Origin: Minisyncoccota bacterium
GTDB taxonomy: Bacteria; Patescibacteriota; Minisyncoccia; Phycocordibacterales; UBA9973
NCBI GenBank assembly: GCA_041664285.1
Contig: JBAYLA010000002.1
Coordinates: 1,349 to 65,348 of the forward strand
Direction of reading: 5' to 3'
DNA: 64,000 bases
Part shown: positions 3,481-41,983 of the stretch, in pieces
How the letters are laid out: the number at the start of each line of letters is the position of its first letter
Numbering within the stretch: position 1 is the first letter of the stretch
The notes under the pieces: generated by a model
What the model was told of the DNA's origin: nothing
The model's database searches: none
The model's input: the letters and a program-made list of their open reading frames with translations, nothing else
Position numbers and translations under genes: made by a program

Positions 3481-4440
3481 TTATTTTTGGTTGGCAAGTC
3501 CAAGCATTAATTCTATATTTTGCACAGCTGCGCCTGCAGCTCCTTTTCCAAGGTTATCAAGAGATGCAACAAGTACGGCTTGTTCTTTTTTTCCATCCCA
3601 AAAAACATGCAAGTCAAGTTTGTCAGTTTTGGCTAGTGCTTCAGGATTAAGACGGCTTTCATATGGAGGATGTAAAATAACTTTAATTTGATTAGATTCT
3701 GCATAATGTTTCCTTAACACTTCTGCTATGTTTTCACCTGTTATTTTCCCTGGGAGCTGTTTTAAATGAAGAGGTATGCTTACAAGCATTCCTTGAGGAA
3801 ACCCTCCAACAGAAGGAATAAAGATTGGACTTTCTTTTAATTGGCTGTGCGTTTGTATTTCTGGTATATGTTTATGTTCTAGATCAAGTCCATATAATTC
3901 AAAATTTGGTGCTGTGCCTTTATTGTGGGCTTCTATCATTTTTTTTCCTCCTCCACTATAACCACTCATAGCATTGATAGTTATTGGATAATCTTCTGGG
4001 ATTACTCCAGCTTGAACAAGAGGCCGAAGAAGTGCGATTGCTCCAGTTGCATAACATCCCGGGTTGGAAACGGCGTCAGCTTCTTTAATTTTTTCTGATT
4101 GTTGGTTGTCCATCTCTGGAAAACCATAAACCCATCCCTGAGCAATGCGATGCGCTGTACTGGCATCAAGAATTTTTGGCGCACTTGAACCAAGGGAGTT
4201 TGCTATCGCAACAGATTCTTTTGCAGCATCATCGGGAAGACAAAGTACAACTAGGTCACTTTTTTCCATAGCTTCGCTACGTTCCTTAGGGTCTTTCGGA
4301 GGTCCTTTTACAAAAACCATTTCAATTTCACCTTTTTCTTCAATAAGTTTTTTTAAGCGCTCGCGTATTTCTAGGGCAGTTGTTCCTTCTGCTCCGTCAA
4401 TAAAGATCTTTGGTTTTGGTTTCCATCCTCCTTTTTCCAT
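3481..4440 (-). CDS. argC: N-acetyl-gamma-glutamyl-phosphate reductase, short type-2 ArgC
   Basis: active-site region NPGCYATG and C-terminal LDNLGKGAAGAAVQN are hallmarks of the ArgC/Asd semialdehyde dehydrogenase family, ArgC-like. Confidence 0.7.
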   Translation of the reverse strand: MEKGGWKPKPKIFIDGAEGTTALEIRERLKKLIEEKGEIEMVFVKGPPKDPKERSEAMEKSDLVVLCLPDDAAKESVAIANSLGSSAPKILDASTAHRIAQGWVYGFPEMDNQQSEKIKEADAVSNPGCYATGAIALLRPLVQAGVIPEDYPITINAMSGYSGGGKKMIEAHNKGTAPNFELYGLDLEHKHIPEIQTHSQLKESPIFIPSVGGFPQGMLVSIPLHLKQLPGKITGENIAEVLRKHYAESNQIKVILHPPYESRLNPEALAKTDKLDLHVFWDGKKEQAVLVASLDNLGKGAAGAAVQNIELMLGLANQK

Positions 4441-8288: not shown

Positions 8289-9062
8289 ATGTCCCTAATC
8301 CAAAAAAATTTAGATAAGAATAATTTACATCATGCATATTTAATAGAGGGCGAGAGGAGTGTAATCGTGAAAGAAATTGAAGAATTTTTAAAAAGTTTAG
8401 GAGTAAGCACCATTGGTAATCCTGACTTTATTCACATTCAATTAGACTCTTTTAAAATTGAAGATGCGAGGAATTTAAAATCCTATGCAAACCAAAAAAG
8501 TTTTTCCTTGGAGAAGAAAATTTTTATTATTTCTGCCAATAACTTTTTACTTGAGGCTCAGAATAGCTTATTGAAGATTTTTGAAGAACCAATAGAAAAT
8601 ACACACTTTTTCTTAATTGTGCCAGATGTCAATTCCCTTTTAAAAACTCTTGTTTCTAGATTTTATTTGATTTCTACAAAGCAAGATATTGGAGAGGTGA
8701 AAGAAGTAGAGAAATTTATTACTATGCCGTTAAAAAACAGAATTGATTTTATAAAAGAATTATTGACTACAGAAGACGAAGAAGATGAAGAAGGAAATGA
8801 AATTATTGTGCTAAATTCTACTCGTTCAAAGGCCTTAAGATTTTTAAATGCGCTAGAGTCTGTGTTATATAGCAAATTTATAAAGAATTTTTCTGGCTTT
8901 ACCCTTCCTGGAGTACCGGGTGGGACTTACGCCATTCAAAATTCTTTACAAATTTGCTTCCCTCATTTTTTTAAGGTTCGCGAATTTCTTCGGATGCCAG
9001 GGAGTTCTGTAAAAAGCTTGATGAAATCCGTAGCAATAGTAACACCAAATTTTAAAAATTAA
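8289..9062 (+). CDS. holB: DNA polymerase III delta-prime-like clamp-loader subunit (no P-loop)
   Basis: HAYLIEG and LLKIFEEP motifs typical of the delta-prime/AAA+ clamp loader; no Walker A, as in delta-prime. Confidence 0.6.
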   Translation: MSLIQKNLDKNNLHHAYLIEGERSVIVKEIEEFLKSLGVSTIGNPDFIHIQLDSFKIEDARNLKSYANQKSFSLEKKIFIISANNFLLEAQNSLLKIFEEPIENTHFFLIVPDVNSLLKTLVSRFYLISTKQDIGEVKEVEKFITMPLKNRIDFIKELLTTEDEEDEEGNEIIVLNSTRSKALRFLNALESVLYSKFIKNFSGFTLPGVPGGTYAIQNSLQICFPHFFKVREFLRMPGSSVKSLMKSVAIVTPNFKN

Positions 9063-9084
9063 TTTTTTGTGATATAGTAAATTT

Positions 9085-9636
9085 ATGCAATACAATTTTT
9101 CAAATTTTAAAGTAGAGCTTAAAAAAACAGAAGATTTCTTAGGCAAAGAATACACTCAGCTTAACATTGGACGAGCGTCACCCATGATCCTCGATGGTGT
9201 GTCTGTCGAATCATATGGTTCATATGTTCCATTAAAAAATGTAGCTTCTATTTCTATTGAAGACCCAAAAACATTACGCATTGCCCCTTGGGATAAATCT
9301 CAAATAAAAGCGATTGAAAAGGCTATTGTTGGTTCAAATTTAGGGTTGTCTGTGGCGACTGATGATTTAGGTATAAGAGTTATTTTTCCACAATTAACTA
9401 CCGAAACGAGGAAAACCTTGGTAAAAGTTTTAAAAGAAAAATTAGAAGAAAGTAGAATTATTGTGCGACGTCTTCGTGAAGCTGTGGTGGTTGAGATAGA
9501 GAAACAAGAAAAAGAAGGTAAAATGACCGAAGATGAAAGATTTCGCGCGAAAGAAGAATTACAGAAAATTATCACTGAAACAAATAGCAAACTAGAAGCA
9601 ATCTTTGAGAAAAAGGAGAGTGAAGTAATGGGATAG
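9085..9636 (+). CDS. frr: ribosome recycling factor
   Basis: 183 aa, conserved RRF pattern (RASPMILDGVSVESYG...LRIAPWDKS...EDERFRAKEELQKI). Confidence 0.85.
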   Translation: MQYNFSNFKVELKKTEDFLGKEYTQLNIGRASPMILDGVSVESYGSYVPLKNVASISIEDPKTLRIAPWDKSQIKAIEKAIVGSNLGLSVATDDLGIRVIFPQLTTETRKTLVKVLKEKLEESRIIVRRLREAVVVEIEKQEKEGKMTEDERFRAKEELQKIITETNSKLEAIFEKKESEVMG

Positions 9637-26261: not shown

Positions 26262-28478
26262 TTAAGCCTCTATCTTTGGTATTTTATGAGGATTGTGCAT
26301 TTTACAAGTTTTATTAGAACATCTTTCAGGGATAGTTTTTGTGCCTTCCATCATTAAACTTCCGCATTCTTTACATATATTTCCAGTAGGTTTAGCCTTG
26401 ATGGCAAATTTACAATCTGGATAATTTGAACAAGAATAAAAAATTCCAAATCTTCCACGTCGTTCTGAAATATCTCCTTTTTTACAAACAGGGCAAATAA
26501 CCCCTGTACGCTTTCTTGCTTCCTCTTCTTCGTCTTTTTTTATAAATTTACATTTTGGATAACGAGAACAAGAAATAAATGTACCTGTACCATCACGTCT
26601 TTCTTTAATGATAAGTTTACCTCCACCAGACTTTCTCTTTTTTTCTCCACATTGGGGACATAGTTCGCCAGTCTCTTTGGGGCCTTTTAATTCGGTACCA
26701 TCCAACATTAAGGCTCCATCGCAGTCAGGATATTTAGAACAAGAATAAAATTTACCCCCTCGAGAAAGTTTAATGATCATAGAACTACCACATTTCGGAC
26801 ACTTTATATTTTCTGGTGCATCACCTAAATTTGTTGCTTTCTCTAGTTTTTCTTTTGATTTTACATCTTTTGAAAAAGGTGTATAAAAATCTTTTAATGT
26901 CTTTTCATATTCACGCTCGCCTCTAGATATTTCATCTAGTTCATCTTCCATTAAAGCAGTAAATGTGTCGGAAATATAATTAGCGAAATGTTTTTCTAGA
27001 AAATCTGAAACAACTTCACCAACATCAGTCGGGAATAATGTTTTACCTTCTTTTTTTACATAACCTCTGTCGTCAATTGTTCTCATAATAGATGCATAGG
27101 TAGAAGGTCGTCCTATTCCTCTTGCTTCAAGTTCTTTAATTAATCCTGCTTCAGAATATCTACTTGGTGGTTCGGTAAACTTTTCTTCTCCACTCAAGCC
27201 GAGCAGTTTTAATTTTTCTCCTTCCTGACACAAAGGAAGTTCTACGTCTTCGCCTCGAGCGCCGGTATCTACGGCTAGCCATCCAGGGAAAAGTAAACGA
27301 GATCCAGTTGCTCCAAAATCAGGGATATCATCATGACCTTCCACCACAGCTGTAATTTTTGTTTTAAGTAATTTTGCTTCTGTCATTTGAGAAGATACAG
27401 CTCTTTCCCAAATAAGTCTATAAAGCTTACTTTGATCTTCGGTACCGGCATGCAATTTTTCTATATGAGTTGGACGAATAGCTTCGTGCGCTTCTTGGGC
27501 ATTTTTTGATTTAGTTTTATAAACTCTGGCTTGGGCATATTTATCTCCATATTCTTTCTTAATAAAAGATAAAATTTGATTTACTGCAGCCCCTCCAAGA
27601 TTCGTGCTGTCTGTTCTCATATAGGTGATATGTCCAGCTTCATAAAGTTTCTGAGCAATTTGCATTGTACGTGAAGGGGAATATCCAAGTCTAGAAGAAG
27701 CTGTTTGCTGTAAGGTAGAAGTGGTAAAGGGTGCTCTAGGAGAGCGTTTCTGTTCAGATTCTTTTACACTTTTTACTATCCAAGAACCCTTTTTCCCTTC
27801 AATCATTATTTTTTCAAATAATTTTTCATCTCTTGGTTCTTCAGAACACGTTAAAGTAATTTTTTCTTTTTTTTGTGTTTCAAATAATCCTAATATTTTC
27901 CAAAATTTTTCAGGTACGAAAGCGCGAATTTCACGTTCACGTTCCATTATTATACGAAGTGCAGGGGATTGAACACGACCAGCCGAGAGTCCATATCTTA
28001 CTTTTTTCCAAATTAAACCCGAGAGATCATAACCAACTAATCTATCAAGAACCCTGCGTGCTTCTTGAGCTTTACGTAGTGCTGTATCAATTTTACGTGG
28101 ATGTTGCAATGCTTCTTCTACTGCTTCTTTTGTAATTTCATAAAAAGCTACTCTTTTTATTGGTGCCTTAACTTTCTTGTCTTGATTTAGAAGTGTCTCA
28201 ATGTGCCAAGCAATAGCTTCTCCCTCACGGTCTGGGTCTGTGGCGAGAAGTATTTCATTTGCTTTTTCCGCTAGTCCTTGAAGTTCGTGAACAATTTTTT
28301 CTTTACCTTTTGAGATTTCATAATGTGGAATAAATCCGCCCTCTATATCTATGGCTTGTTTGTTTGATTTTGGTAAGTCACGAATATGTCCAACAGAAGC
28401 GCGTACAGTAAATTTGCCTTCAAGATATTTCTCAATAGTTTTTGCTTTGGATGGCGATTCAACAATTAATAATTTCAT
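26262..28478 (-). CDS. topA: DNA topoisomerase I with C-terminal zinc ribbons
   Basis: TOPRIM start MKLLIVESPSKAKTIEKYLEGKFTVRASVGHIRDLP, catalytic Tyr region, multiple C4 ribbons at the C-terminus. Confidence 0.9.
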   Translation of the reverse strand: MKLLIVESPSKAKTIEKYLEGKFTVRASVGHIRDLPKSNKQAIDIEGGFIPHYEISKGKEKIVHELQGLAEKANEILLATDPDREGEAIAWHIETLLNQDKKVKAPIKRVAFYEITKEAVEEALQHPRKIDTALRKAQEARRVLDRLVGYDLSGLIWKKVRYGLSAGRVQSPALRIIMEREREIRAFVPEKFWKILGLFETQKKEKITLTCSEEPRDEKLFEKIMIEGKKGSWIVKSVKESEQKRSPRAPFTTSTLQQTASSRLGYSPSRTMQIAQKLYEAGHITYMRTDSTNLGGAAVNQILSFIKKEYGDKYAQARVYKTKSKNAQEAHEAIRPTHIEKLHAGTEDQSKLYRLIWERAVSSQMTEAKLLKTKITAVVEGHDDIPDFGATGSRLLFPGWLAVDTGARGEDVELPLCQEGEKLKLLGLSGEEKFTEPPSRYSEAGLIKELEARGIGRPSTYASIMRTIDDRGYVKKEGKTLFPTDVGEVVSDFLEKHFANYISDTFTALMEDELDEISRGEREYEKTLKDFYTPFSKDVKSKEKLEKATNLGDAPENIKCPKCGSSMIIKLSRGGKFYSCSKYPDCDGALMLDGTELKGPKETGELCPQCGEKKRKSGGGKLIIKERRDGTGTFISCSRYPKCKFIKKDEEEEARKRTGVICPVCKKGDISERRGRFGIFYSCSNYPDCKFAIKAKPTGNICKECGSLMMEGTKTIPERCSNKTCKMHNPHKIPKIEA

Positions 28479-28690: not shown

Positions 28691-29065
28691 ATGGAATTTA
28701 AACAATCAATAAAGAAAGAGGAGAAGACAAAATTTATTATAGCAGATAATGGTTTTGAAAGAGCGATAGGCCCTGCTGAAGAAATTAAAAATCGTTATAC
28801 CTTTTATAGAGATAAAGATTATCCTGCAGAGCTAAGACTTAATGGAAATCTCCTTTATGATGAATATAAACCTATAACTATCGAAGAAGATAGTATTATC
28901 TATGATAATGCGGGACTTAGTAATTATGTGCTTAGAAAGGGTGATTTAATTGTTGTCACCAAAGATGGCAAACAGCCAGATGGAGAAAACTGGAATCTTA
29001 TTAACGAAGAATCAGTCAAGGGGATAAAAACTGCCGTATGGGTGAAAAAAAATAAATTACATTAA
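28691..29065 (+). CDS. hypothetical protein (124 aa)
   Basis: ORF only; no recognisable motif. Confidence 0.45.
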   Translation: MEFKQSIKKEEKTKFIIADNGFERAIGPAEEIKNRYTFYRDKDYPAELRLNGNLLYDEYKPITIEEDSIIYDNAGLSNYVLRKGDLIVVTKDGKQPDGENWNLINEESVKGIKTAVWVKKNKLH

Positions 29066-29917
29066 TCTAATTTCTCCTATTTCCTCTTTTATTAATCCTT
29101 TAATTTCCATTACAGACAAGAGAGCGTTAGCTGTAGGTGTCGACATTTTTAACGCACGGATTAAATCATCTCGAGACATTGGTTCCCGTAATAAATCTGC
29201 AACTTTTTTCTCTTCAGGGAGTAAATCAAAAAATAATTTTGCTTGCCTTTCTTTATTTTTTGGAAGTTCAAAACCAAGAGCTTCTAAAACATCTTCCGAA
29301 CAAGTGACGGGTGTTGCGCCTTGATGTAACAATTTATTTACACCTTTAGAATTGGGAGAAAAGATTGATCCAGGTACAACTAATAAATCTCTATTATATT
29401 CTGTGGTTAAACGGGCAGTGATAAGCGTTCCAGACTTTTCTTCTGCTTCTATAATAAGTACTGCTTTTGAAATTCCTGCCATCAACCTGTTTCTTCTTGC
29501 AAAGCCCCATAAGGTTGCCTTGAAGTCTGGTTCAAATTCTGAAATTAAACATCCACCACTTTTAATAATTTCTTCTGCTAATTTTGCATTTGTTTTTGGA
29601 TACATAGCTTCTCTTGATAATCCTGATCCAGGAAATACTAAAACTTTTAATCCAACAGCTAAAGCTTTTTGGTGGGCAATAGCATCAATGCCCATAGCCA
29701 GTCCAGAAACTATCACTATTGGGTAATCTTTCAAGCCTGCAATTATCTTTTCACACGCTTCACGACCGTAACTAGTGTTTTTTCGTGAACCGACGATACA
29801 TAAATGTATTAAATGTTCTTCTGGTAACTCACCAATTATCCAAAGATTTTCTGGAGGTTGAGGAATTTCTAAAAGTGCTTTTGGGAATTTATTTTTTGGT
29901 AATTTTTTTATTTGCAT
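29057..29917 (-). CDS. dprA: DNA processing protein DprA (Smf)
   Basis: Rossmann-like core IVSGLAMGIDAIAHQKAL...VLVFPGSGL typical of DprA; C-terminal winged-helix tail. Confidence 0.85.
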   Translation of the reverse strand: MQIKKLPKNKFPKALLEIPQPPENLWIIGELPEEHLIHLCIVGSRKNTSYGREACEKIIAGLKDYPIVIVSGLAMGIDAIAHQKALAVGLKVLVFPGSGLSREAMYPKTNAKLAEEIIKSGGCLISEFEPDFKATLWGFARRNRLMAGISKAVLIIEAEEKSGTLITARLTTEYNRDLLVVPGSIFSPNSKGVNKLLHQGATPVTCSEDVLEALGFELPKNKERQAKLFFDLLPEEKKVADLLREPMSRDDLIRALKMSTPTANALLSVMEIKGLIKEEIGEIRLM

Positions 29918-35092: not shown

Positions 35093-35166
35093 TGGGAGAT
35101 CGTCTAACGGTAGGACAGCGGCCTTTGAAGCCGTGAATCTTGGTTCGATTCCAAGTCTCCCAGCCA
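35093..35166 (+). tRNA. trnQ: tRNA-Gln (anticodon TTG), CCA encoded
   Basis: acceptor TGGGAGA/TCTCCCA, anticodon stem GCGGC/GCCGT with loop CTTTGAA, T-arm CTTGG-TTCGATT-CCAAG, discriminator G then CCA. Confidence 0.85.
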
Positions 35167-35221
35167 CCTCGAGCGCGTCTCGAACGCTCTAGATGCTTAG
35201 AAATCATTATTAATAAATAAT

Positions 35222-36085
35222 ATGGATCAAGTCTCAGCATTAACATTAATAAATTTATCAAAAGACATAGCACAGCTTAATTTAGGATATTTAGGAATAT
35301 CAGTGGCCATTTTGGGTGTACTTGGTGTGGTTTTTGTTTATTTCAATTTAAATCCATTAAAGGAAACCTTAAGTAAACAAGAGAAAAAAATTGAAGATTT
35401 AAAAACAGAAGCACATGATTTATTAAATCAATCAAAGGAGCAGTCTGAAAAAACTCTCGATGATTTTAAAATAAATCAATCCAATATGGTGACTTCAATT
35501 TTTAAACAACAAAAAAATGAAATCGATCTAGAAACAAAAAATAAAATTCAAGAATCTTATACTATATTGTTAGAAAAAATAGAAAGTATTTCAGAAGACA
35601 AGGACACAAAACTTAAAGAAATTATTATATCTGAAGCTAATAATAGTTTAGCTAATTTAGACAAAGATCTTACTGCAAAAATAAGCGCCATGAAAGAAGA
35701 TATTCTCAAAGAAGTTAAGGCGATAAATACTGGATTTAAAGCAAGAATAAAAGAACTGGATGAGAAAATTAAAGAATTACAAGTTTATAAGTATAGTAAA
35801 GAGGGACAAATGGGCGCAATAATTTATTCCATTGAATTGCTTGAAAATGCTATAGATGATTATCTAGAATTCAAAAAAATACTTAAAGGAGTTCCATTTA
35901 ACGCTGAAACACATGGTTGGAAAATTAATCTTAGAATAGAAGGATTAATAAAAGAAATTGGTGATCTTCCTGTTGAACAAGAATATATTTCAAAAATTAA
36001 TTTACAATTAACAAAAATTGAAAACGAATCTATTTTTAAAAATTTAATTGACAAACTCAGGAAAAAACTTTTACCTGTGGCATAA
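35222..36085 (+). CDS. hypothetical membrane-anchored coiled-coil protein (287 aa)
   Basis: one N-terminal TM then long K/E-rich heptad-like region. Confidence 0.5.
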   Translation: MDQVSALTLINLSKDIAQLNLGYLGISVAILGVLGVVFVYFNLNPLKETLSKQEKKIEDLKTEAHDLLNQSKEQSEKTLDDFKINQSNMVTSIFKQQKNEIDLETKNKIQESYTILLEKIESISEDKDTKLKEIIISEANNSLANLDKDLTAKISAMKEDILKEVKAINTGFKARIKELDEKIKELQVYKYSKEGQMGAIIYSIELLENAIDDYLEFKKILKGVPFNAETHGWKINLRIEGLIKEIGDLPVEQEYISKINLQLTKIENESIFKNLIDKLRKKLLPVA

Positions 36086-36096
36086 ACTGGATACTC

Positions 36097-36188
36097 TAGA
36101 CGCGTCGTTTTGGTATAATAAAATAGAGCAGGGAAGCTTTACAGGGTAATGAATTGTACGGTTCTGTCACGAGACCGCCAGCCAGCAC
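36097..36188 (+). repeat. repeat R1: ~78-nt element (extended -10 TGGTATAAT plus conserved leader) ending in box GACCGCCAGCCAGCAC; near-identical copy at 38883..38960
   Basis: manual alignment of 36097..36174 with 38883..38960 gives about 9 of 10 identical positions; the CCAGCCAGCA box recurs at 36728..36751 and 37093..37115. Confidence 0.85.
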
Positions 36189-36219
36189 TTGTTAGGTTAA
36201 TAAATAGTATACTTAACTT

Positions 36220-36576
36220 ATGGAACCACTTTTTTCTGAAATCAAAAAATCTCTAGAAGATGGAAATTTTTATGCTGCGCTTTTTATGGTTCTGACTATC
36301 CCTGATATTTGTTTGTCTGTAAAAATGGGTAAGCACGCTGGGCAAGACTATGAAGAATGGTTTAATAATAATTTATCAAGATATAAAGGATACATGACGG
36401 GTAAAGATTGCTATGCTTTTAGGTGTGCTATCTTACACGAAGGATCAGATAATGTTTTATCTCAGTCAAAGAAAGATATAATTGATAAATTTGAAATTTT
36501 ATCTAAAAAAGAATCTTCTCATTTAATTTATATGGGGGCAATAAGTATAACGGGATTTTACAACCAACAAAATTAA
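36220..36576 (+). CDS. hypothetical protein (118 aa)
   Basis: ORF downstream of R1; no motif. Confidence 0.45.
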   Translation: MEPLFSEIKKSLEDGNFYAALFMVLTIPDICLSVKMGKHAGQDYEEWFNNNLSRYKGYMTGKDCYAFRCAILHEGSDNVLSQSKKDIIDKFEILSKKESSHLIYMGAISITGFYNQQN

Positions 36577-36727
36577 TTATAAATTTACATATTTTTTGCA
36601 ACGACATTATGAATTCTTCACAAAAATTTATTAGTGACAATAACCTAAATGCCAGAAATATTGTAGATATTAAAAGTAAATATAATGACGGATTTATAAG
36701 TATTGGTTAGATAAAACGACTCCGATA

Positions 36728-36751
36728 TCATTCCAGACTGCCAGCCAGCAC
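36728..36751 (+). repeat. repeat R2 box TCATTCCAGACTGCCAGCCAGCAC, 21 nt upstream of the next ATG
   Basis: matches R3 at about 25 of 28 positions; ATTCCA...CCAGCCA core loosely matches the tRNA-Gln T-loop/acceptor 3' end (GATTCCAAGTCTCCCAGCCA). Confidence 0.75.
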
Positions 36752-36772
36752 TTTTTAAGCTATAATTAAATT

Positions 36773-37078
36773 ATGAAGAAAGTTATTTTTAAAAAAGATA
36801 AATATAAAAAAGCTAGAGGAGGTTATTCAAGACTTTTGAATATTTTTTGTAGAAAATGTGGCAAACAAATTTGTCAGTATCAGAAAGATGGTCAAGGAAA
36901 TTTAAGAAGAATGTATATTGATAGAATCTCGGGAAAGAAAGTTCCTATCTTGGGAAAAAATTTGAGTTGTCCTGAAGGACACACACTAGGAATAAAAATT
37001 ATTTACGAAAAAGAGAATCGTCCAGCATTTCGATTATTTGTTGATTCAGTGACAAAAAAGATCGTTAAATTACATTAA
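36773..37078 (+). CDS. small zinc-ribbon protein (101 aa)
   Basis: CRKCGKQIC ... CPEGH spacing; basic. Confidence 0.45.
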   Translation: MKKVIFKKDKYKKARGGYSRLLNIFCRKCGKQICQYQKDGQGNLRRMYIDRISGKKVPILGKNLSCPEGHTLGIKIIYEKENRPAFRLFVDSVTKKIVKLH

Positions 37079-37092
37079 TAGCGGTTCCAACG

Positions 37093-37115
37093 TCATTCCA
37101 GACACCCAGCCAGCA
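37093..37115 (+). repeat. repeat R3 box TCATTCCAGACACCCAGCCAGCA, 5 nt upstream of the MFS gene ATG
   Basis: see R2. Confidence 0.75.
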
Positions 37116-37120
37116 TTTTT

Positions 37121-38380
37121 ATGAGAATTGAGAAAAAAACTTTTGAATCACTTAAGATAAGAAACTACAGATTATATTTTATTGGTCAATCTATTTCTTT
37201 ACCTGGAACTTGGATGCAGACAGTTGCTCAATCTTGGCTTGTATTAAAATTAACTGGTTCTGGTACAGCCTTGGGGCTTGTCCTTGCCTTACAATATTTG
37301 CCGATGCTTATTCTTGGACCCTGGGGAGGACTTTTAGTAGATAGATTTCCAAAAAGAAAATTATTATTTTTTACCCAATCCGCTTATGGTATATTCGCTT
37401 TAATTTTGGGAATTTTAGTACTTATAGGTACAGTACAGTTATGGATGATTTATATCTTTGCTTTTTGTTTGGGTTTGATAAATACAGTAGATAATCCGAC
37501 ACGACAGACTTTCGCTGTTGAAATGGTAAGTAAGGACAAGTTACATAATGCTATTGTTTTAAATTCAATTGAAATAAATCTCGCTCGAGTTGTTGGGCCT
37601 GCCCTAGCTGGTATTTTAATCTTATCTGTTGGAATTGGATTTTGTTTTATCCTAAATGCAATTTCTTTTATAGGGGTCATCATTTCTTTGTCTATGATGC
37701 ACTCAAAAGAATTATTCCCTTCTCCTCTGGTAAAAAAGAAAAAAGGACAAGTTATAGAAGGCCTAAAATATGTGAAAAACTCTCCAGTAATTAAAGACAC
37801 GATTATTATGATGGCAATCATTGGAACTTTGACTTATGAATTTAGTGTCAGTTTGCCACTTTTGACACAATCTACTTTTCATGGAGATGCAGGAACTTTT
37901 ACATTACTGACTTCTTCTATTGGAATAGGTGCAGTCATCGGTGGATTATTTATTGCTAGTCGTAAAAAAACTGGTTCTGTGACTATTGTTACTGGAGCTT
38001 TTTTCTTAGGACTTTTTGTTTTAGGTGCCTCAATGGCTCAAAATATCTTGATGGCGATTTTGTTGTTAATAGGAGTTGGCTTTTTTTCTATCTATTTTAA
38101 TTCTTCAGGAAATACTACAATTCAACTTGAAAGTTCTCCTTCTATGCGAGGCAGGGTCATGGCTCTTTGGGCAGTGGCATCTCTCGGTTCAACTCCAATA
38201 GGGAGCCCAATCATTGGTTGGGTCGGAGAACATATGGGAGCTAGATACTGCGTGGCTCTAGGAGGGGTAGCTGCAATTGTAGCTGCTTTGTTCGGGGCAA
38301 TACAATTAAAAAGAGGTAAATATCTAGAAGTACAGGAAAAAGAAATAGAGGAAACCGATATTTCTGTGCCAAAGATTTAA
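37121..38380 (+). CDS. MFS transporter (12 TM)
   Basis: MFS signature GPWGGLLVDRFPKRK between TM2 and TM3, 419 aa with about 12 hydrophobic segments. Confidence 0.8.
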   Translation: MRIEKKTFESLKIRNYRLYFIGQSISLPGTWMQTVAQSWLVLKLTGSGTALGLVLALQYLPMLILGPWGGLLVDRFPKRKLLFFTQSAYGIFALILGILVLIGTVQLWMIYIFAFCLGLINTVDNPTRQTFAVEMVSKDKLHNAIVLNSIEINLARVVGPALAGILILSVGIGFCFILNAISFIGVIISLSMMHSKELFPSPLVKKKKGQVIEGLKYVKNSPVIKDTIIMMAIIGTLTYEFSVSLPLLTQSTFHGDAGTFTLLTSSIGIGAVIGGLFIASRKKTGSVTIVTGAFFLGLFVLGASMAQNILMAILLLIGVGFFSIYFNSSGNTTIQLESSPSMRGRVMALWAVASLGSTPIGSPIIGWVGEHMGARYCVALGGVAAIVAALFGAIQLKRGKYLEVQEKEIEETDISVPKI

Positions 38381-38477
38381 ATAAACAAGGACGGTCCTTG
38401 TTTATTTAGCAGAAGGTACTTTTAGTTTTATTTTGATATAATAGTTTTATGAAAAATAAATATGTTATTATTTAAAA

Positions 38478-38876
38478 ATGGATTTTAGTTCAACCTCACT
38501 TGGATACATTTTAGATCTGTTTGCGACTATCTTTATTGTTTTTTCCATAGTTTTCCGATCTAAAAGAAGGATAGGGGTCGACTCTGAAACTTTATATGGT
38601 GGAAATCCGTTTGTATATGAGTCACAATTGAGATCATTTTGGGATGGATGGATTGGAATAATAATCTTTTTTATAGGAACAGTACTGCATTTATTTCATT
38701 TTCAATTAGGAATTAGGAATTTTATTCTAGTTCTCATCTTAACAATAATATTGTTAATAATTTTGAGGTTAATAATAATATTCTTTATAAAAAGAGATGT
38801 TAGAAAAAGATACAAACATTATGATTCTGTAAAGAAAGCGATGGATGAAGGTAAATATGATACTTATCCCAAATAG
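38478..38876 (+). CDS. hypothetical small membrane protein (132 aa)
   Basis: 3-4 TM segments; no motif. Confidence 0.45.
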   Translation: MDFSSTSLGYILDLFATIFIVFSIVFRSKRRIGVDSETLYGGNPFVYESQLRSFWDGWIGIIIFFIGTVLHLFHFQLGIRNFILVLILTIILLIILRLIIIFFIKRDVRKRYKHYDSVKKAMDEGKYDTYPK

Positions 38877-38882
38877 TCGCTC

Positions 38883-38960
38883 GAGATGCGTCGTTTTGAT
38901 ATAATAAAATAGAGCAGGGAAGCTTTACCGGGTAAGGAATTGTACAGTTCTATCACGAGG
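38883..38960 (+). repeat. repeat R4: second copy of the ~78-nt R1 element (extended -10 TGATATAAT plus leader), with the terminal CCAGCCAGCA box degenerated
   Basis: see R1. Confidence 0.85.
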
Positions 38961-39030
38961 ATGTCAGCAAAGTATTAAAACTGTTATTTTAAAGTTGCAA
39001 ATAGACTTAAAGGTTGTAGTATTATAATAC

Positions 39031-39846
39031 ATGGTCAAAACATTAATTCTAAATGATGTTAAAAAGACTTTTGACGTTGGAAAACCGTTTGAAGTGTTAA
39101 AGAATATTACTCTAGATGTGAATGAAGGAGATTTTGTTTCCATAGTTGGACCAAGTGGTTGTGGAAAATCAGTTCTTCTTTATTTAATTGCTGGTTTTAT
39201 AGAAAAAACATCTGGACAAGTTTTAATTAATAATAATTCTATTGTTCGGCCCGGTACTGATAGAATGATGGTTTTCCAGGACTACGTGCTACTTCCATGG
39301 AAAAGCGTTTATGATAATGTTCTCTTCAGTTTAGAAAAAAGCGATTTAAGCGATAAAGAAAAAAAGGAGCTTACAACAAAATATATTGACTTAGTAGGAC
39401 TTACTCAATTTAAAAATTGGCATATTCACAGACTCTCTGGAGGGATGAAACAAAAAGTTGCTATCGCCCGAGCGTTGATTGTAAATTCAAAAATTCTGCT
39501 TATGGATGAGCCTTTTTCCGCACTGGATCCACAGCAACGTAAATATTTGCGAAAAAGTCTTTTAGAGATATGTGAAAAGACAAAAAAAACAGTATTATTT
39601 GTTACACATAGTGTAAGTGAGGCTTTATATCTTTCAAACAAAATATATGTAATGAGTTCATGTCCGGCAGTAATTAAAAATCGTTATGACATTAATATAC
39701 CACATCCACGACATTCTTCAGATCCACAATATGTTCGTTTTAAAGAAAAAATTGAAGAAGATTTATTTCAAGAGTTTGAAAAAACACTACTAAATCAAAG
39801 AGAGGAAACATTAATTGATTTAATATTAAAAACAGAAGTGATATGA
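39031..39846 (+). CDS. ABC transporter ATP-binding protein (NitT/TauT family, SsuB/TauB-like)
   Basis: Walker A GPSGCGKS, signature LSGGMKQKVAIARAL, Walker B LLMDEPFSALD. Confidence 0.85.
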   Translation: MVKTLILNDVKKTFDVGKPFEVLKNITLDVNEGDFVSIVGPSGCGKSVLLYLIAGFIEKTSGQVLINNNSIVRPGTDRMMVFQDYVLLPWKSVYDNVLFSLEKSDLSDKEKKELTTKYIDLVGLTQFKNWHIHRLSGGMKQKVAIARALIVNSKILLMDEPFSALDPQQRKYLRKSLLEICEKTKKTVLFVTHSVSEALYLSNKIYVMSSCPAVIKNRYDINIPHPRHSSDPQYVRFKEKIEEDLFQEFEKTLLNQREETLIDLILKTEVI

Positions 39847-40880
39847 GTAAATCTAAAAAAAGTTTAATTATAGTCATCAGTATATTTCTTGCCTTATGTT
39901 TTATTTTTTTTCTATATATAACATTTGAACAGGAATTTAAAAAAGATGAGTTTCTTAAAATAGGATATGCTGGTCATAGTCTCAATTACGGATCAGTAAT
40001 GGTGGCATACGAGGGGGATTTTTTTAATAAGCATGGAGTATCAACCAAGCTAGTATCTTTTAAATCTGGTTCAGAAATAGGCCTTGCACTTGCAACGGGG
40101 AAAATTGATGTGGCCCTTCTTAGTATTTCTAGCGCTCTGATCACTATTGATGCTGGAGCTCCAATTAAAATAATAGGCCCAACAGCAAGAGCATCTACTG
40201 TTGTATTTGTAAGACCGAACGACTCTATCCAGTCATTTAGTGATCTGCGCGGGAAAAAGATTGAGGGTGGAGGGACAGGTACTTCAAAACTCGAGTTTCT
40301 TCGTGCAGCGTCTAAAGAAGGGTTAAAAGAATCTGATTTTACGTTTGTAGATGTTGACAAAGATTATAAAGAGATTGCTCTTTTACAAAAAAAAATAATT
40401 GATGCAATACCAACTAGTAAATATAACGCTGATTCTTTAATCAAAGCAGGGGCAATTCCATTAAAAGAATGGGAAGAAAAGAGATATGACAGAGTCTTTA
40501 ATGCGCACACATATATGGTGGTAAACACAAAATACGCACAAAACCATGAAGCAGAGATAGAAAAAGTTATAGATTCGATAATTGACGCACAGAGTTTTAT
40601 TGCCAAGGATCCTCAGAATGCGGCACCACTTGTAGTTCGAAATATTCAAAACGCAACCGATGGCGTTGCAAATTTTACTACTTCACAAGTATTGGAAAAT
40701 TGGCAAAAAAGTATTCGGTATATTGTGTGGTCAGATCCAAATGAAGTTATTGATATAGTAAATTTTTTACGTGCATCAAAAGGAATTAAAAATACACTTA
40801 CTCTTGATCAGATATTTGATTTACATTTTTTATCAAAACTAGAAAAAATGCAAAAAATAATATATGGCTCGGAAAATTAA
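39843..40880 (+). CDS. ABC transporter substrate-binding protein, NMT1/THI5-SsuA-like, membrane anchored
   Basis: N-terminal TM, periplasmic-binding-protein type 2 fold features; ATGA overlap with the ATPase gene. Confidence 0.55.
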   Translation: MSKSKKSLIIVISIFLALCFIFFLYITFEQEFKKDEFLKIGYAGHSLNYGSVMVAYEGDFFNKHGVSTKLVSFKSGSEIGLALATGKIDVALLSISSALITIDAGAPIKIIGPTARASTVVFVRPNDSIQSFSDLRGKKIEGGGTGTSKLEFLRAASKEGLKESDFTFVDVDKDYKEIALLQKKIIDAIPTSKYNADSLIKAGAIPLKEWEEKRYDRVFNAHTYMVVNTKYAQNHEAEIEKVIDSIIDAQSFIAKDPQNAAPLVVRNIQNATDGVANFTTSQVLENWQKSIRYIVWSDPNEVIDIVNFLRASKGIKNTLTLDQIFDLHFLSKLEKMQKIIYGSEN

Positions 40881-41643
40881 AAACATAGCGCTAGGTTCTA
40901 TTCCATTTTTAGTTGTTATTATTATCTGGTTTTTTGGTAATTATTTTTCTTTCTTTCCGAGATGGATGATACCATCACCATTTACAACCGCACAAACATT
41001 TTTTTGGCTTATCAAAGATGGTACATTGCTTCAGCTGGCGTGGGGAAGCATTCAAATCGCTTTAGTTGGTTTTGGATTTGCAACGATCGTTGCAGTTATT
41101 TTGGGAATCCTTATAGGGAGTTATCCAACAATGCGTAAAATTTTCTTTCCTTTTTTCTCTGCAGTATATATTGTTCCTTCACTAGCTTGGTTACCTGTAA
41201 TTATATTGATTTTGGGATTTACAAAAACAACAGTTATCTGTATTGTGTTCCTCTCAAGTTTTAAAAAAATAATTTATAACGTGGTAAGCGGAGTACGTAG
41301 TGTAAATATCAGCTGGATACTGGCTGGAAAAAACATTGGTTTAAATAAGTTTGAAATTACGTACAAAATTATTATTCCCGCTGCATTACCTCAAATAATT
41401 ACAGGTCTTAGAATGGGATTTGCTAGTGCTTGGAGAACTTTGATTGGAGCTGAAATGTTAGTTTCCGGAGCTGCTGGCTTGGGAAGATTTATTTGGAATG
41501 CACAATGGTTTTTGGCTTTTGATAAGGTTTTTTCTGGAATTATTATAATTGCATTAATTGGTATGCTAGCGGAACAATTTGTATTTAAACCTTTTGAGGA
41601 TAAGACATTAATAAAATGGGGTTTAGCACAAGAAGAAATATGA
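40864..41643 (+). CDS. ABC transporter permease (NitT/TauT family)
   Basis: six TM helices and the EAA-like loop motif of binding-protein-dependent permeases; overlaps the upstream gene. Confidence 0.75.
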   Translation: MARKIKNIALGSIPFLVVIIIWFFGNYFSFFPRWMIPSPFTTAQTFFWLIKDGTLLQLAWGSIQIALVGFGFATIVAVILGILIGSYPTMRKIFFPFFSAVYIVPSLAWLPVIILILGFTKTTVICIVFLSSFKKIIYNVVSGVRSVNISWILAGKNIGLNKFEITYKIIIPAALPQIITGLRMGFASAWRTLIGAEMLVSGAAGLGRFIWNAQWFLAFDKVFSGIIIIALIGMLAEQFVFKPFEDKTLIKWGLAQEEI

Positions 41644-41686
41644 AAATATTATCCTTATTCTTCTATAAGTTTGATATAATAAAAAT

Positions 41687-41983
41687 ATGAAAAAACCATT
41701 TTTATATGCATTGGGGGCAGCTAGCTATATTGTTGTTATAGTTTTCGTTGTAAAAGTCTTGGGTTCTGCCCTAAAGATCCAAAACGAAACTATAATTATT
41801 CCAATGACTATGTTAAGCCTATTTGTATTGTCAGCTGCAGTGATGGGATTTTTATTTTTATCTGAATCTCTATATTTACTTGTAGAGAATCGAAGAAAAG
41901 AAGCTATTATTTTCTTTGGGAAAATTGTTGGATTTTTTGCTTGCTTCGTAGTTGTTTTTACAATTTTACTTTTCTTTCTATGA
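41687..41983 (+). CDS. hypothetical small membrane protein (98 aa)
   Basis: three hydrophobic segments. Confidence 0.4.
   Translation: MKKPFLYALGAASYIVVIVFVVKVLGSALKIQNETIIIPMTMLSLFVLSAAVMGFLFLSESLYLLVENRRKEAIIFFGKIVGFFACFVVVFTILLFFL

Follow-up and report, generated by a model that had tools for sequence, protein, structure and literature searches.

A repeat-delimited variable locus anchored on tRNA-Gln and a conserved zinc-protein gene in Patescibacteria, probably a hotspot of cassette-like gene turnover

The 64,000-nt stretch of DNA from a Minisyncoccota bacterium analysed here (GenBank assembly GCA_041664285.1, contig JBAYLA010000002.1, positions 1,349 to 65,348; hereafter the window) carries, downstream of a tRNA-Gln(TTG) gene, a row of plus-strand genes punctuated by two kinds of direct repeat (Table 1): an 89-nt 'long element', present twice, and a shorter 'box', present three times. 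A gene for a coiled-coil membrane protein separates the tRNA gene from the first long element. The two long elements then enclose four genes, encoding a 118-amino-acid (aa) product of no recognized family (geneA), a 101-aa zinc protein (ZnR), a transporter of the MFS type and a 132-aa membrane protein. The initial annotation of this sequence had described these four genes correctly except for the first, whose 118-aa open reading frame (ORF) is a frameshifted copy of a gene for 163-164 aa. An ABC transporter operon follows the second long element. This locus type, anchored on tRNA-Gln and ZnR, recurs across Paceibacterota/Patescibacteria (related loci are denoted by L numbers below).

The long element (36094-36182 and 38880-38968; 88% identical) had been annotated as a sequence of ~78 nt occurring twice at about 90% identity, directly after stop codons and with an extended -10; all of this proved real, except that the repeat is slightly longer. 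Copy 1 begins 8 nt past the stop of the 287-aa ORF, and copy 2 begins 3 nt past that of the 132-aa ORF; a 20-mer common to both never appeared twice in 100 shuffles, and nhmmer found no third copy in the window. Copy 1 consists, in order, of a 5' site (CTCTAGACGCGTCG), an extended -10 (TGGTATAAT, 36111-36119; TGATATAAT in copy 2), ~40 nt of conserved sequence and box 1 (36158-36192). Homologues occupy the same locus in at least seven other genomes: nhmmer detected them in L045, L050, L076, L059 and L098, with partial copies in L093 and L151, at E values of 1e-18 to 1e-23 for the seed sequences and of 1e-5 to 1e-6 (L093) and 1.3e-8 (L151) for the independent copies. Common to them are a 5' site (CTCGAGAYGCGTC), an extended -10 (TGGTAnAnT) and, at the 3' end, a variant of the box (GGTTCTNAC-CGAGAC-NGCCAGC). 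The element lies directly upstream of ZnR in L151 and L093, upstream with one or two intervening genes in L045, L050 and L076, and 3' of ZnR in L098 and L059, and the genes downstream of it differ among genomes. It is a second conserved module, normally placed just upstream of ZnR. Its 5' site also recurs on its own: by eye, the short site after tRNA-Gln (CTCGAGCGCGTC/CTCTAGATGC) resembles the first 10-14 nt of both long repeats, such that CTCTAGAYGC repeats (35187 and 36094) bracket the 287-aa gene; in L050, a 14-nt version (CTCGAGACGCGTCC) lies 20 nt past tRNA-Gln and again at the 5' end of the long element, with a 450-aa gene between; and in L098, a similar 17-nt repeat brackets ZnR itself.

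The suggestion that the element contains a leader of some 60 nt was not borne out. It has no Rfam match, even at E values up to 10; single-sequence folds are no better than those of shuffled sequences (z-scores +0.8 to -1.0); and RNAalifold on seven homologues gives -0.74 kcal/mol, four pairs and no compensatory changes. Moreover, the element is absent from the related ABC operons in L030 and L031 (ATPase 63-67% identical), which are preceded by a bare promoter and by tRNA-Trp, respectively. Because of this lack of conserved RNA structure, of any Rfam match and of the element itself before orthologous operons, a riboswitch or structured leader was ruled out.

The box was likewise correctly placed by the initial annotation, at 5-32 nt ahead of the first three of the four genes: CCAGCCAGCA occurs exactly at 36178, 36741 and 37106, and the next ATG follows the three boxes at 32, 22 and 5 nt. 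Allowing one mismatch gives six matches against 0.95 expected, and 0 of 100 shuffles reached six. In full, each box spans ~35 nt (69-83% identity among the three), with the core GTTCCAAC-N-TCGTYCCAGAC; it is C-rich and G-poor, and contains direct half-repeats, GTTCCA/GTCCCA, 11 nt apart. A hidden Markov model (HMM) built from 13 boxes near ZnR, with hits counted at E<0.5, recovered 41 boxes in 16 fetched loci (~13 genome types; 644 kb searched). All 41 lie on the same strand as ZnR, and 38 are intergenic although ORFs cover 80% of bases, the remaining three being attributable to miscalled ORF starts. Boxes start 0-65 nt past a stop codon and are spaced at 115-1493 nt in arrays; some pairs enclose no ORF (for example, L034 561/1150 and L053 3082/3197). 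A box follows the ZnR stop by 3-7 nt in ten loci (L042, L045, L053, L055, L089, L095, L097, L101, L106 and the window), and by 65 nt in L034/35/36. The 5' half is conserved between genomes, whereas the 3' half varies both between genomes and between copies. Within single loci the repeats can be very regular: L095 holds seven copies of a 21-nt core (GTTCCAACATCGTCCCAGAC), six at 90-100% identity to the reference copy and one at 71%, and L034 holds three copies of an 88-nt module composed of box, hairpin with T-run and TGGTAGAAT. L053 and L055 show the same succession of box, hairpin with T-run and TGGTAnAAT. Loci bearing boxes and long elements are scattered over the ZnR tree.

The box itself has no Rfam match and no dyad symmetry, no inverted repeat coincides with any copy, and the box regions fold weakly (z-scores +0.5 and -2.1). 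With no dyad symmetry, a Xer/dif-like or attC-like site was ruled out; a -35 or UP element was ruled out by the distance to the nearest -10, which varies from 3 to >18 nt. A scan of viral contigs with the box core gave 37 hits, all within coding sequence: 33 in one conserved gene, read as a C5-methyltransferase from its translated motif, and four in a second. These were set aside as coincidences multiplied by gene copies. Literature searches for the box sequence returned nothing relevant.

ZnR provides the fixed point of these loci. The family (~100 aa) comprises >1170 clusters, the 120 best listed being 66-84% identical, and has no Pfam match. Its AlphaFold2 model (pLDDT 86) weakly resembles the zinc fold of Yippee, Mis18, cereblon-CULT and the RIG-I C-terminal domain (best Foldseek E 0.03, TM 0.5). 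What is predicted, a Yippee/Mis18/cereblon-type beta-tent zinc domain, is no recombinase fold. A metagenome scan for ZnR yielded 80 loci, and in at least 13 of them (11 by ARAGORN, plus contig-edge fragments in L087 and L101), as well as in L151, tRNA-Gln lies upstream on the same strand. ZnR is often co-located, and probably co-transcribed, with tRNA-Gln. The two are adjacent in L063, a few tens of nucleotides apart in L071, L094, L098 and L101, ~190 nt apart in L084 and L086, and 0.8-3.6 kb apart in L075, L087, L055, L076, L050 and L053. None of the genomes compared has related content between them; defence genes (Thoeris ThsA/ThsB, T5orf172 and an HNH-like gene) are among what is found there. 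Cargo units in other genomes comprise Thoeris ThsA/ThsB, T5orf172, HNH/GmrSD-like, AAT, His_Phos_1, Peptidase_S51 and NTPase_I-T genes, together with many that have no match.

Some further features of the tRNA-headed regions deserve mention. A genuine partial duplicate of tRNA-Gln(CTG), running from the D-arm to the 3' end with an inserted GC-rich hairpin and a different acceptor strand, lies between the intact tRNA-Gln and ZnR in L084 (3805-3900) and L086 (2865-2960), and was seen only there. Free-standing LAGLIDADG-type genes occur right upstream of the head tRNA (tRNA-Gln or tRNA-Ser) in L050 (731-1420), L055 (912-1601) and L005 (8785-9792), and nuclease genes sit inside variable slots (HNH/GmrSD_C-like, L151 8141-8596; T5orf172, L050 3310-3975); nuclease-driven insertion at such regions is conceivable.

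Two comparisons of related loci reveal differences that end in the repeats. L053 and L055 share 95% identity across the 411 nt that span ZnR and 100% across a 127-nt downstream flank, and L053 carries an extra unit of 830 nt: the boxes at either end of this unit both align with the one box of L055, which places the crossover inside TTCCGACTTCGTTCCAGA. L151 is syntenic with the window from DprA to ZnR (83% nucleotide identity), in the order DprA, SerRS, Dus, DnaX, tRNA-Gln ... long element, ZnR and a 96-aa gene. It has a single long element, directly before ZnR; geneA, the genes for the MFS transporter and the 132-aa protein, the second copy of the long element and the ABC operon are all missing from it. 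Its ZnR stop overlaps the 96-aa gene (9034-9324), with nothing between; the homologue of that gene in the window is the 98-aa gene at 41687-41983 (58% amino-acid identity). The slot between tRNA-Gln and the long element, which holds the 287-aa gene in the window, is filled by two unrelated genes in L151. Compared with L151, the window has four extra stretches: a gene for 196 aa on the minus strand, ahead of the tRNA; another occupant in the slot between tRNA and element; geneA with box 2 (~36193-36755); and 4.6 kb (37079-41675) that hold box 3, the genes for the MFS transporter and the 132-aa protein, the second copy of the long element and the ABC operon.

These borders bear on the idea that 36175-38882, the DNA between the long elements, entered as a single unit that a relative might lack while keeping one repeat. 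L151 does keep one long repeat. However, the interval between the two copies is not the variable DNA, because it contains the conserved anchor ZnR, and the stretches extra relative to L151 have other borders. The more general proposal of cassette-like insertions beside the tRNA gene is supported by the comparisons: gene-sized, repeat-bounded units are seen in the arrays of the 16 loci, in L053/L055, at the geneA homologue of L095 and against L151. A derivation of the box from the tRNA end could not be shown. A 144-nt repeat in L034 (457-600 and 4155-4298; 83% identical) comprises the 3' end of ZnR plus the downstream box, and its other copy lies 3.7 kb upstream, where it forms the 3' end of a different ORF; partial gene ends may therefore also be carried along when the locus recombines.

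The geneA shift lies in a run of five G residues at 36534-36538, and one added G restores a product of 163 aa ending at a TAG at 36708-36710. Full-length homologues (163-164 aa) are 64-73% identical. The same frameshift is present in the independent Logan contig L001; either geneA is a pseudogene, or the site is phase-variable or slippery. Rx4H (HEPN-like) is an invariant motif of the family, for which Pfam, NCBIfam and PADLOC give no match and a fold search gives only non-significant AbiV/HEPN matches. In L095 a geneA homologue is flanked by boxes downstream of ZnR, whereas geneA of the window lies upstream of ZnR. Elsewhere, homologues occur in unrelated contexts, often among restriction-modification, AIPR and HTH genes, and frequently right downstream of tRNA-Ser, with a conserved leader and trailer of their own. 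In L010, L011, L023, L004 and L005 the start of this leader (88 nt) coincides exactly with the CCA end of tRNA-Ser or with a ...CCGCCA relic, and the trailer spans ~140 nt; the place of tRNA-Ser is taken in L011 and L023 by a GC-rich element of ~270 nt that matches no Rfam family. Homology of this leader and trailer to the window's element and box was considered and dropped: there is some likeness by eye, but nhmmer finds nothing. Beside the geneA homologues of L010 (2790-2829) and L011 (2619-2658), in a 690-nt gap of a restriction-modification/AIPR island, lies a sub-threshold match to the type III hammerhead (33 bits against a gathering score of 48.5; E 0.002).

Shine-Dalgarno sequences are almost absent from this genome (3 of 58 window genes), and many of the genes are preceded by a TAnnnT hexamer that ends ~6 nt short of the ATG (for example, 3481-4440 on the minus strand, 9085, 33341, 41687, 47711 and 53063), a pattern that suggests widespread leaderless mRNAs. 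Boxes 1 and 2 are followed by -10 promoters of this kind (TATACT/TATAAT 6 nt before the ATG, with no hairpin; box 3 has neither), and most units are therefore probably transcribed on their own. Outside the locus, a tandem octamer (CTAGAACC, four copies, ~2595-2634) lies directly upstream of the ORF at 2635, and related CTAGAA(A/C)C...CCTAAnnT motifs lie right upstream of two genes (30150, and 26262-28478 on the minus strand); the octamer may be a promoter or operator motif. The competence gene DprA is located at 29057-29917. Among the fetched loci, neither the 287-aa ORF nor the MFS gene has a homologue, and a contig scan with the NMT1-type binding protein of the ABC operon returned only two distant, irrelevant loci.

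Table 1. Features of the tRNA-Gln/ZnR locus in the window
Feature	Position	Strand	Basis or remark
tRNA-Gln(TTG)	35093-35166	+	ARAGORN and Rfam; upstream anchor of the variable locus
Short post-tRNA site	CTCGAGCGCGTC 35168-35179, CTCTAGATGC 35187-35196	+	Reading by eye
287-aa coiled-coil/membrane ORF	35222-36085	+	Variable unit in the slot between tRNA-Gln and long element
Long element copy 1, including box 1	36094-36192	+	Direct-repeat search, shuffles, nhmmer
geneA (frameshifted)	36220-36710	+	Full-length homologues; putative movable unit
Box 2	36721-36755	+	E 1.2e-5 against multi-genome box HMM
ZnR, 101-aa zinc protein	36773-37078	+	Conserved anchor gene
Box 3, canonical box right after ZnR stop	37086-37120	+	E 2.7e-6 against multi-genome box HMM
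MFS_3-type transporter	37121-38380	+	Pfam MFS_3, E 6e-61; variable unit
Perfect 15-bp hairpin right after MFS gene	38378-38408	+	Inverted-repeat search; probably a terminator (predicted)
132-aa membrane ORF	38478-38876	+	Variable unit
Long element copy 2, with TGATATAAT and degenerate box	38880-38978	+	Precedes ABC operon
NitT/TauT-type ABC operon: ATPase, NMT1/SsuA-like binding protein, permease	39031-41643	+	Pfam, NCBIfam
98-aa membrane gene	41687-41983	+	Conserved downstream flank

We favour, with moderate confidence, the reading that the locus is a hypervariable, cassette-like hotspot in which the repeats are the points of recombination. Direct observation covers the repeat families and the arrays they form, their position with respect to strand and genes, the indel bounded by boxes, and what sets the window apart from the syntenic L151; from this we infer the role of the repeats as recombination substrates and the enzymology. 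Units would be single genes or small operons, most with their own -10 about 6 nt before the ATG, separated by the conserved same-strand, C-rich box (~21-35 nt), which is sometimes followed by a hairpin terminator. Recombination within boxes and at the 5' site of the long element would gain, lose and reshuffle such units, leaving direct repeats around inserted DNA. In the window, geneA would have been inserted between the long element's box and ZnR; ~4.6 kb (the MFS and 132-aa genes, a duplicate of the long element, and the ABC operon) would have been added after ZnR; and the slot between tRNA and long element would hold the lineage-specific 287-aa gene. The exchange could be driven by RecA or transformation, functional intergenic repeats acting as portable homology in the manner of the promoter-early stem-loop elements (PeSLs) of T4-like phages, or by a recombinase acting in trans. 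The initial annotation had noted that no integrase is present in the window, and none was found: there was no Pfam hit to a recombinase in the 20 window ORFs scanned (mostly integrase-sized, five of them without any hit; the check was not exhaustive) or in the locus's own genes, and none appeared in those genes of the examined array loci that were called or scanned. Given its recurring layout and the lack of a recombinase in these scans, the locus therefore looks like an undescribed way of shuffling accessory genes.

Several points weigh against this reading. The 21-nt core does not exceed the minimum length that efficient RecA recombination usually requires, and it has no dyad symmetry of the sort expected of tyrosine or serine recombinase core sites, nor did the scanned window ORFs yield an enzyme. 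Box recombination cannot account for every insertion, because L045, L050 and L076 carry genes between long element and ZnR without box duplication. L001, the only other assembly of the window's genome, is identical in arrangement and thus shows no polymorphism for that genome; the sampling of boxes was anchored on ZnR loci only; we infer, for each difference, whether it was an insertion or a deletion; and the boxes could be conserved for a purely regulatory reason.

Among the alternatives, the one we take most seriously, while considering it unlikely, is an integron-like system in which the box is the site of a dedicated recombinase encoded elsewhere, the long element corresponds to attI/Pc and units are captured as circles. 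Such a system would explain the ORF-repeat-ORF architecture and strict orientation, a core kept across deep divergence while its flanks vary, the box pairs that enclose no ORF, the place of geneA right after the long element's box with the box duplicated behind it, and a core that is short for homologous recombination; it is harder to reconcile with a box that has neither dyad symmetry nor an attC-like fold, with the promoters that most units carry, with the insertions in L045, L050 and L076 that lack box duplication, and with the negative recombinase scans of window ORFs and array-locus genes. More speculative, and rather doubtful in our judgement, is a previously undescribed cassette-capture system in Patescibacteria, with a ~21-nt non-palindromic direct-repeat site (GTTCCAAC-N-TCGTYCCAGAC) and a promoter-bearing platform by tRNA-Gln, which would be serviced by a trans recombinase or a nuclease-driven mechanism and would assemble defence and transport arrays integron-style. 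The free-standing LAGLIDADG, HNH and T5orf172 genes near such loci are candidates for the nuclease, and within such a system the always-present ZnR could be a site-binding factor.

The repeats might instead be regulatory, the box serving as an operator, a Rho-utilization-like or processing site or a 3'-UTR (untranslated region) protein-binding site of co-regulated neighbours, the long element as a promoter/leader or small-RNA gene, and the gene turnover amounting to ordinary hotspot behaviour. The fixed orientation with respect to transcription, the position of boxes 0-25 nt after stops and before promoters, their C-rich, G-poor composition with half-repeats and the conserved extended -10 of the long element all agree with this; because the genome is otherwise leaderless, the promoter of the long element, at 100-125 nt upstream, stands out and could serve to transcribe a short RNA of its own. 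However, the breakpoints of the L053/L055 indel fall inside the box, some box pairs are gene-free between, the long element has no conserved RNA structure or Rfam match, and the genes beside boxes are functionally unrelated, which leaves this explanation improbable. Least probable of all is that the boxes are displaced, decayed 3' ends of tRNA-Gln, left by successive rounds of integrase-driven insertion, with the integrase genes later lost. The initial annotation had put the resemblance of box and tRNA end at roughly 70%, and ATTCCA...CCAGCCA is indeed common to both; arrays begin at tRNA-Gln, L084 and L086 contain the true partial duplicate described above, and the geneA family elsewhere begins at the tRNA-Ser end or its relic. 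Yet the likeness exists by eye only: the box HMM matches the tRNA-Gln end at E=46, an HMM of the tRNA-Gln 3' half matches no box at E<10, and a full tRNA-Gln HMM on the long element does not score above shuffled controls. With all three tests failing, a tRNA origin of box or long element was rejected as a working explanation and is retained only as this low-probability rival. Boxes of different genomes are, moreover, closer to each other than to any tRNA, they also occur downstream of the conserved ZnR, and the units are of 0.4-1.5 kb with no integrase remnants.

The hotspot with recombining repeats, if that is what the locus is, would matter for a group of bacteria with tiny genomes, mostly uncultured, in which the acquisition of accessory and defence genes is little known. 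As a conserved repeat-delimited platform in many genomes, with Thoeris, HEPN-like, nuclease, transporter and unknown genes aboard, it would give searches for strain-level variation and for new defence systems a definite target, and it gives a context to the very conserved, uncharacterized ZnR family (>1000 clusters, no Pfam match). Should a dedicated enzyme exist, it would represent a new site-specific recombination system with a short asymmetric site.

The locus appears kin to cassette arrays, PeSL-like shuffling and tRNA-linked hotspots, none of which we found described in the literature searched on Patescibacteria, or the Candidate Phyla Radiation (CPR); searches for integrons and cassettes in CPR returned nothing relevant. 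With integrons and clusters of attC sites lacking integron-integrases (CALIN) it shares arrays of single genes in the same orientation, each unit ending in a repeat (41 of 41 boxes on one strand), a promoter-bearing module at the head of the array and highly variable content, often unknown or of defence type. A CALIN needs no integrase, and no IntI was found in the scanned window, locus or array-locus genes. By contrast, attC sites are 57-141 nt long, whereas the box is 21-35 nt and has none of their R''/L''-L'/R' inverted-repeat structure, most units here have their own promoters, and a conserved, housekeeping-like ZnR lies inside the array. tRNA-linked islands resemble the locus in lying directly downstream of a tRNA gene, in their accessory and defence cargo and in direct repeats at unit borders; here, however, no integrase was found, the repeats are not demonstrably copies of a tRNA 3' end, and each unit is a single gene, not an island of many kilobases. 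In Neisseria, minimal mobile elements are cassettes exchanged between conserved flanking genes through transformation and homologous recombination (PMC3787668, PMC3082526). Alternative content between conserved flanks, with no mobility genes needed, is common to both, and DprA is present in the window, but unit borders here are marked by internal short repeats and not by flanking core genes alone.

By analogy, the closest described behaviour is that of the PeSLs, mobile regulatory cassettes that mediate modular shuffling in T4-like phages (Arbiol et al. 2010, PMC2839356; Comeau et al. 2014, PMC4122927). As composites of terminator and promoter, PeSLs lie on either side of dispensable ORFs and mediate indels by homologous recombination, with mini-circles as a further product (PMC2839356, PMC4122927). 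In both systems, short conserved intergenic repeats border ORFs, non-essential and mostly unknown, in hyperplastic regions; close relatives differ by indels and replacements that end in the repeats (here in L053/L055 and between the window and L151, for geneA with box 2 and for box 3 with the 4.6 kb); and neither appears to involve a dedicated recombinase. A composite of putative terminator and promoter like that of the PeSLs is seen here in the 88-nt module of L034 and in L053 and L055. The differences are that the host is a bacterial (CPR) chromosome and not a phage, that the anchor is tRNA-Gln plus ZnR, and that the core is a 21-nt, non-hairpin, C-rich sequence ahead of the terminator/promoter part, with no hairpin in the window, which is conserved across genomes whose ZnR is only ~70% identical. 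Even under the conservative reading, in which the repeats provide portable homology, PeSL-type shuffling would thus be extended from T4-like phages to a bacterial chromosome.

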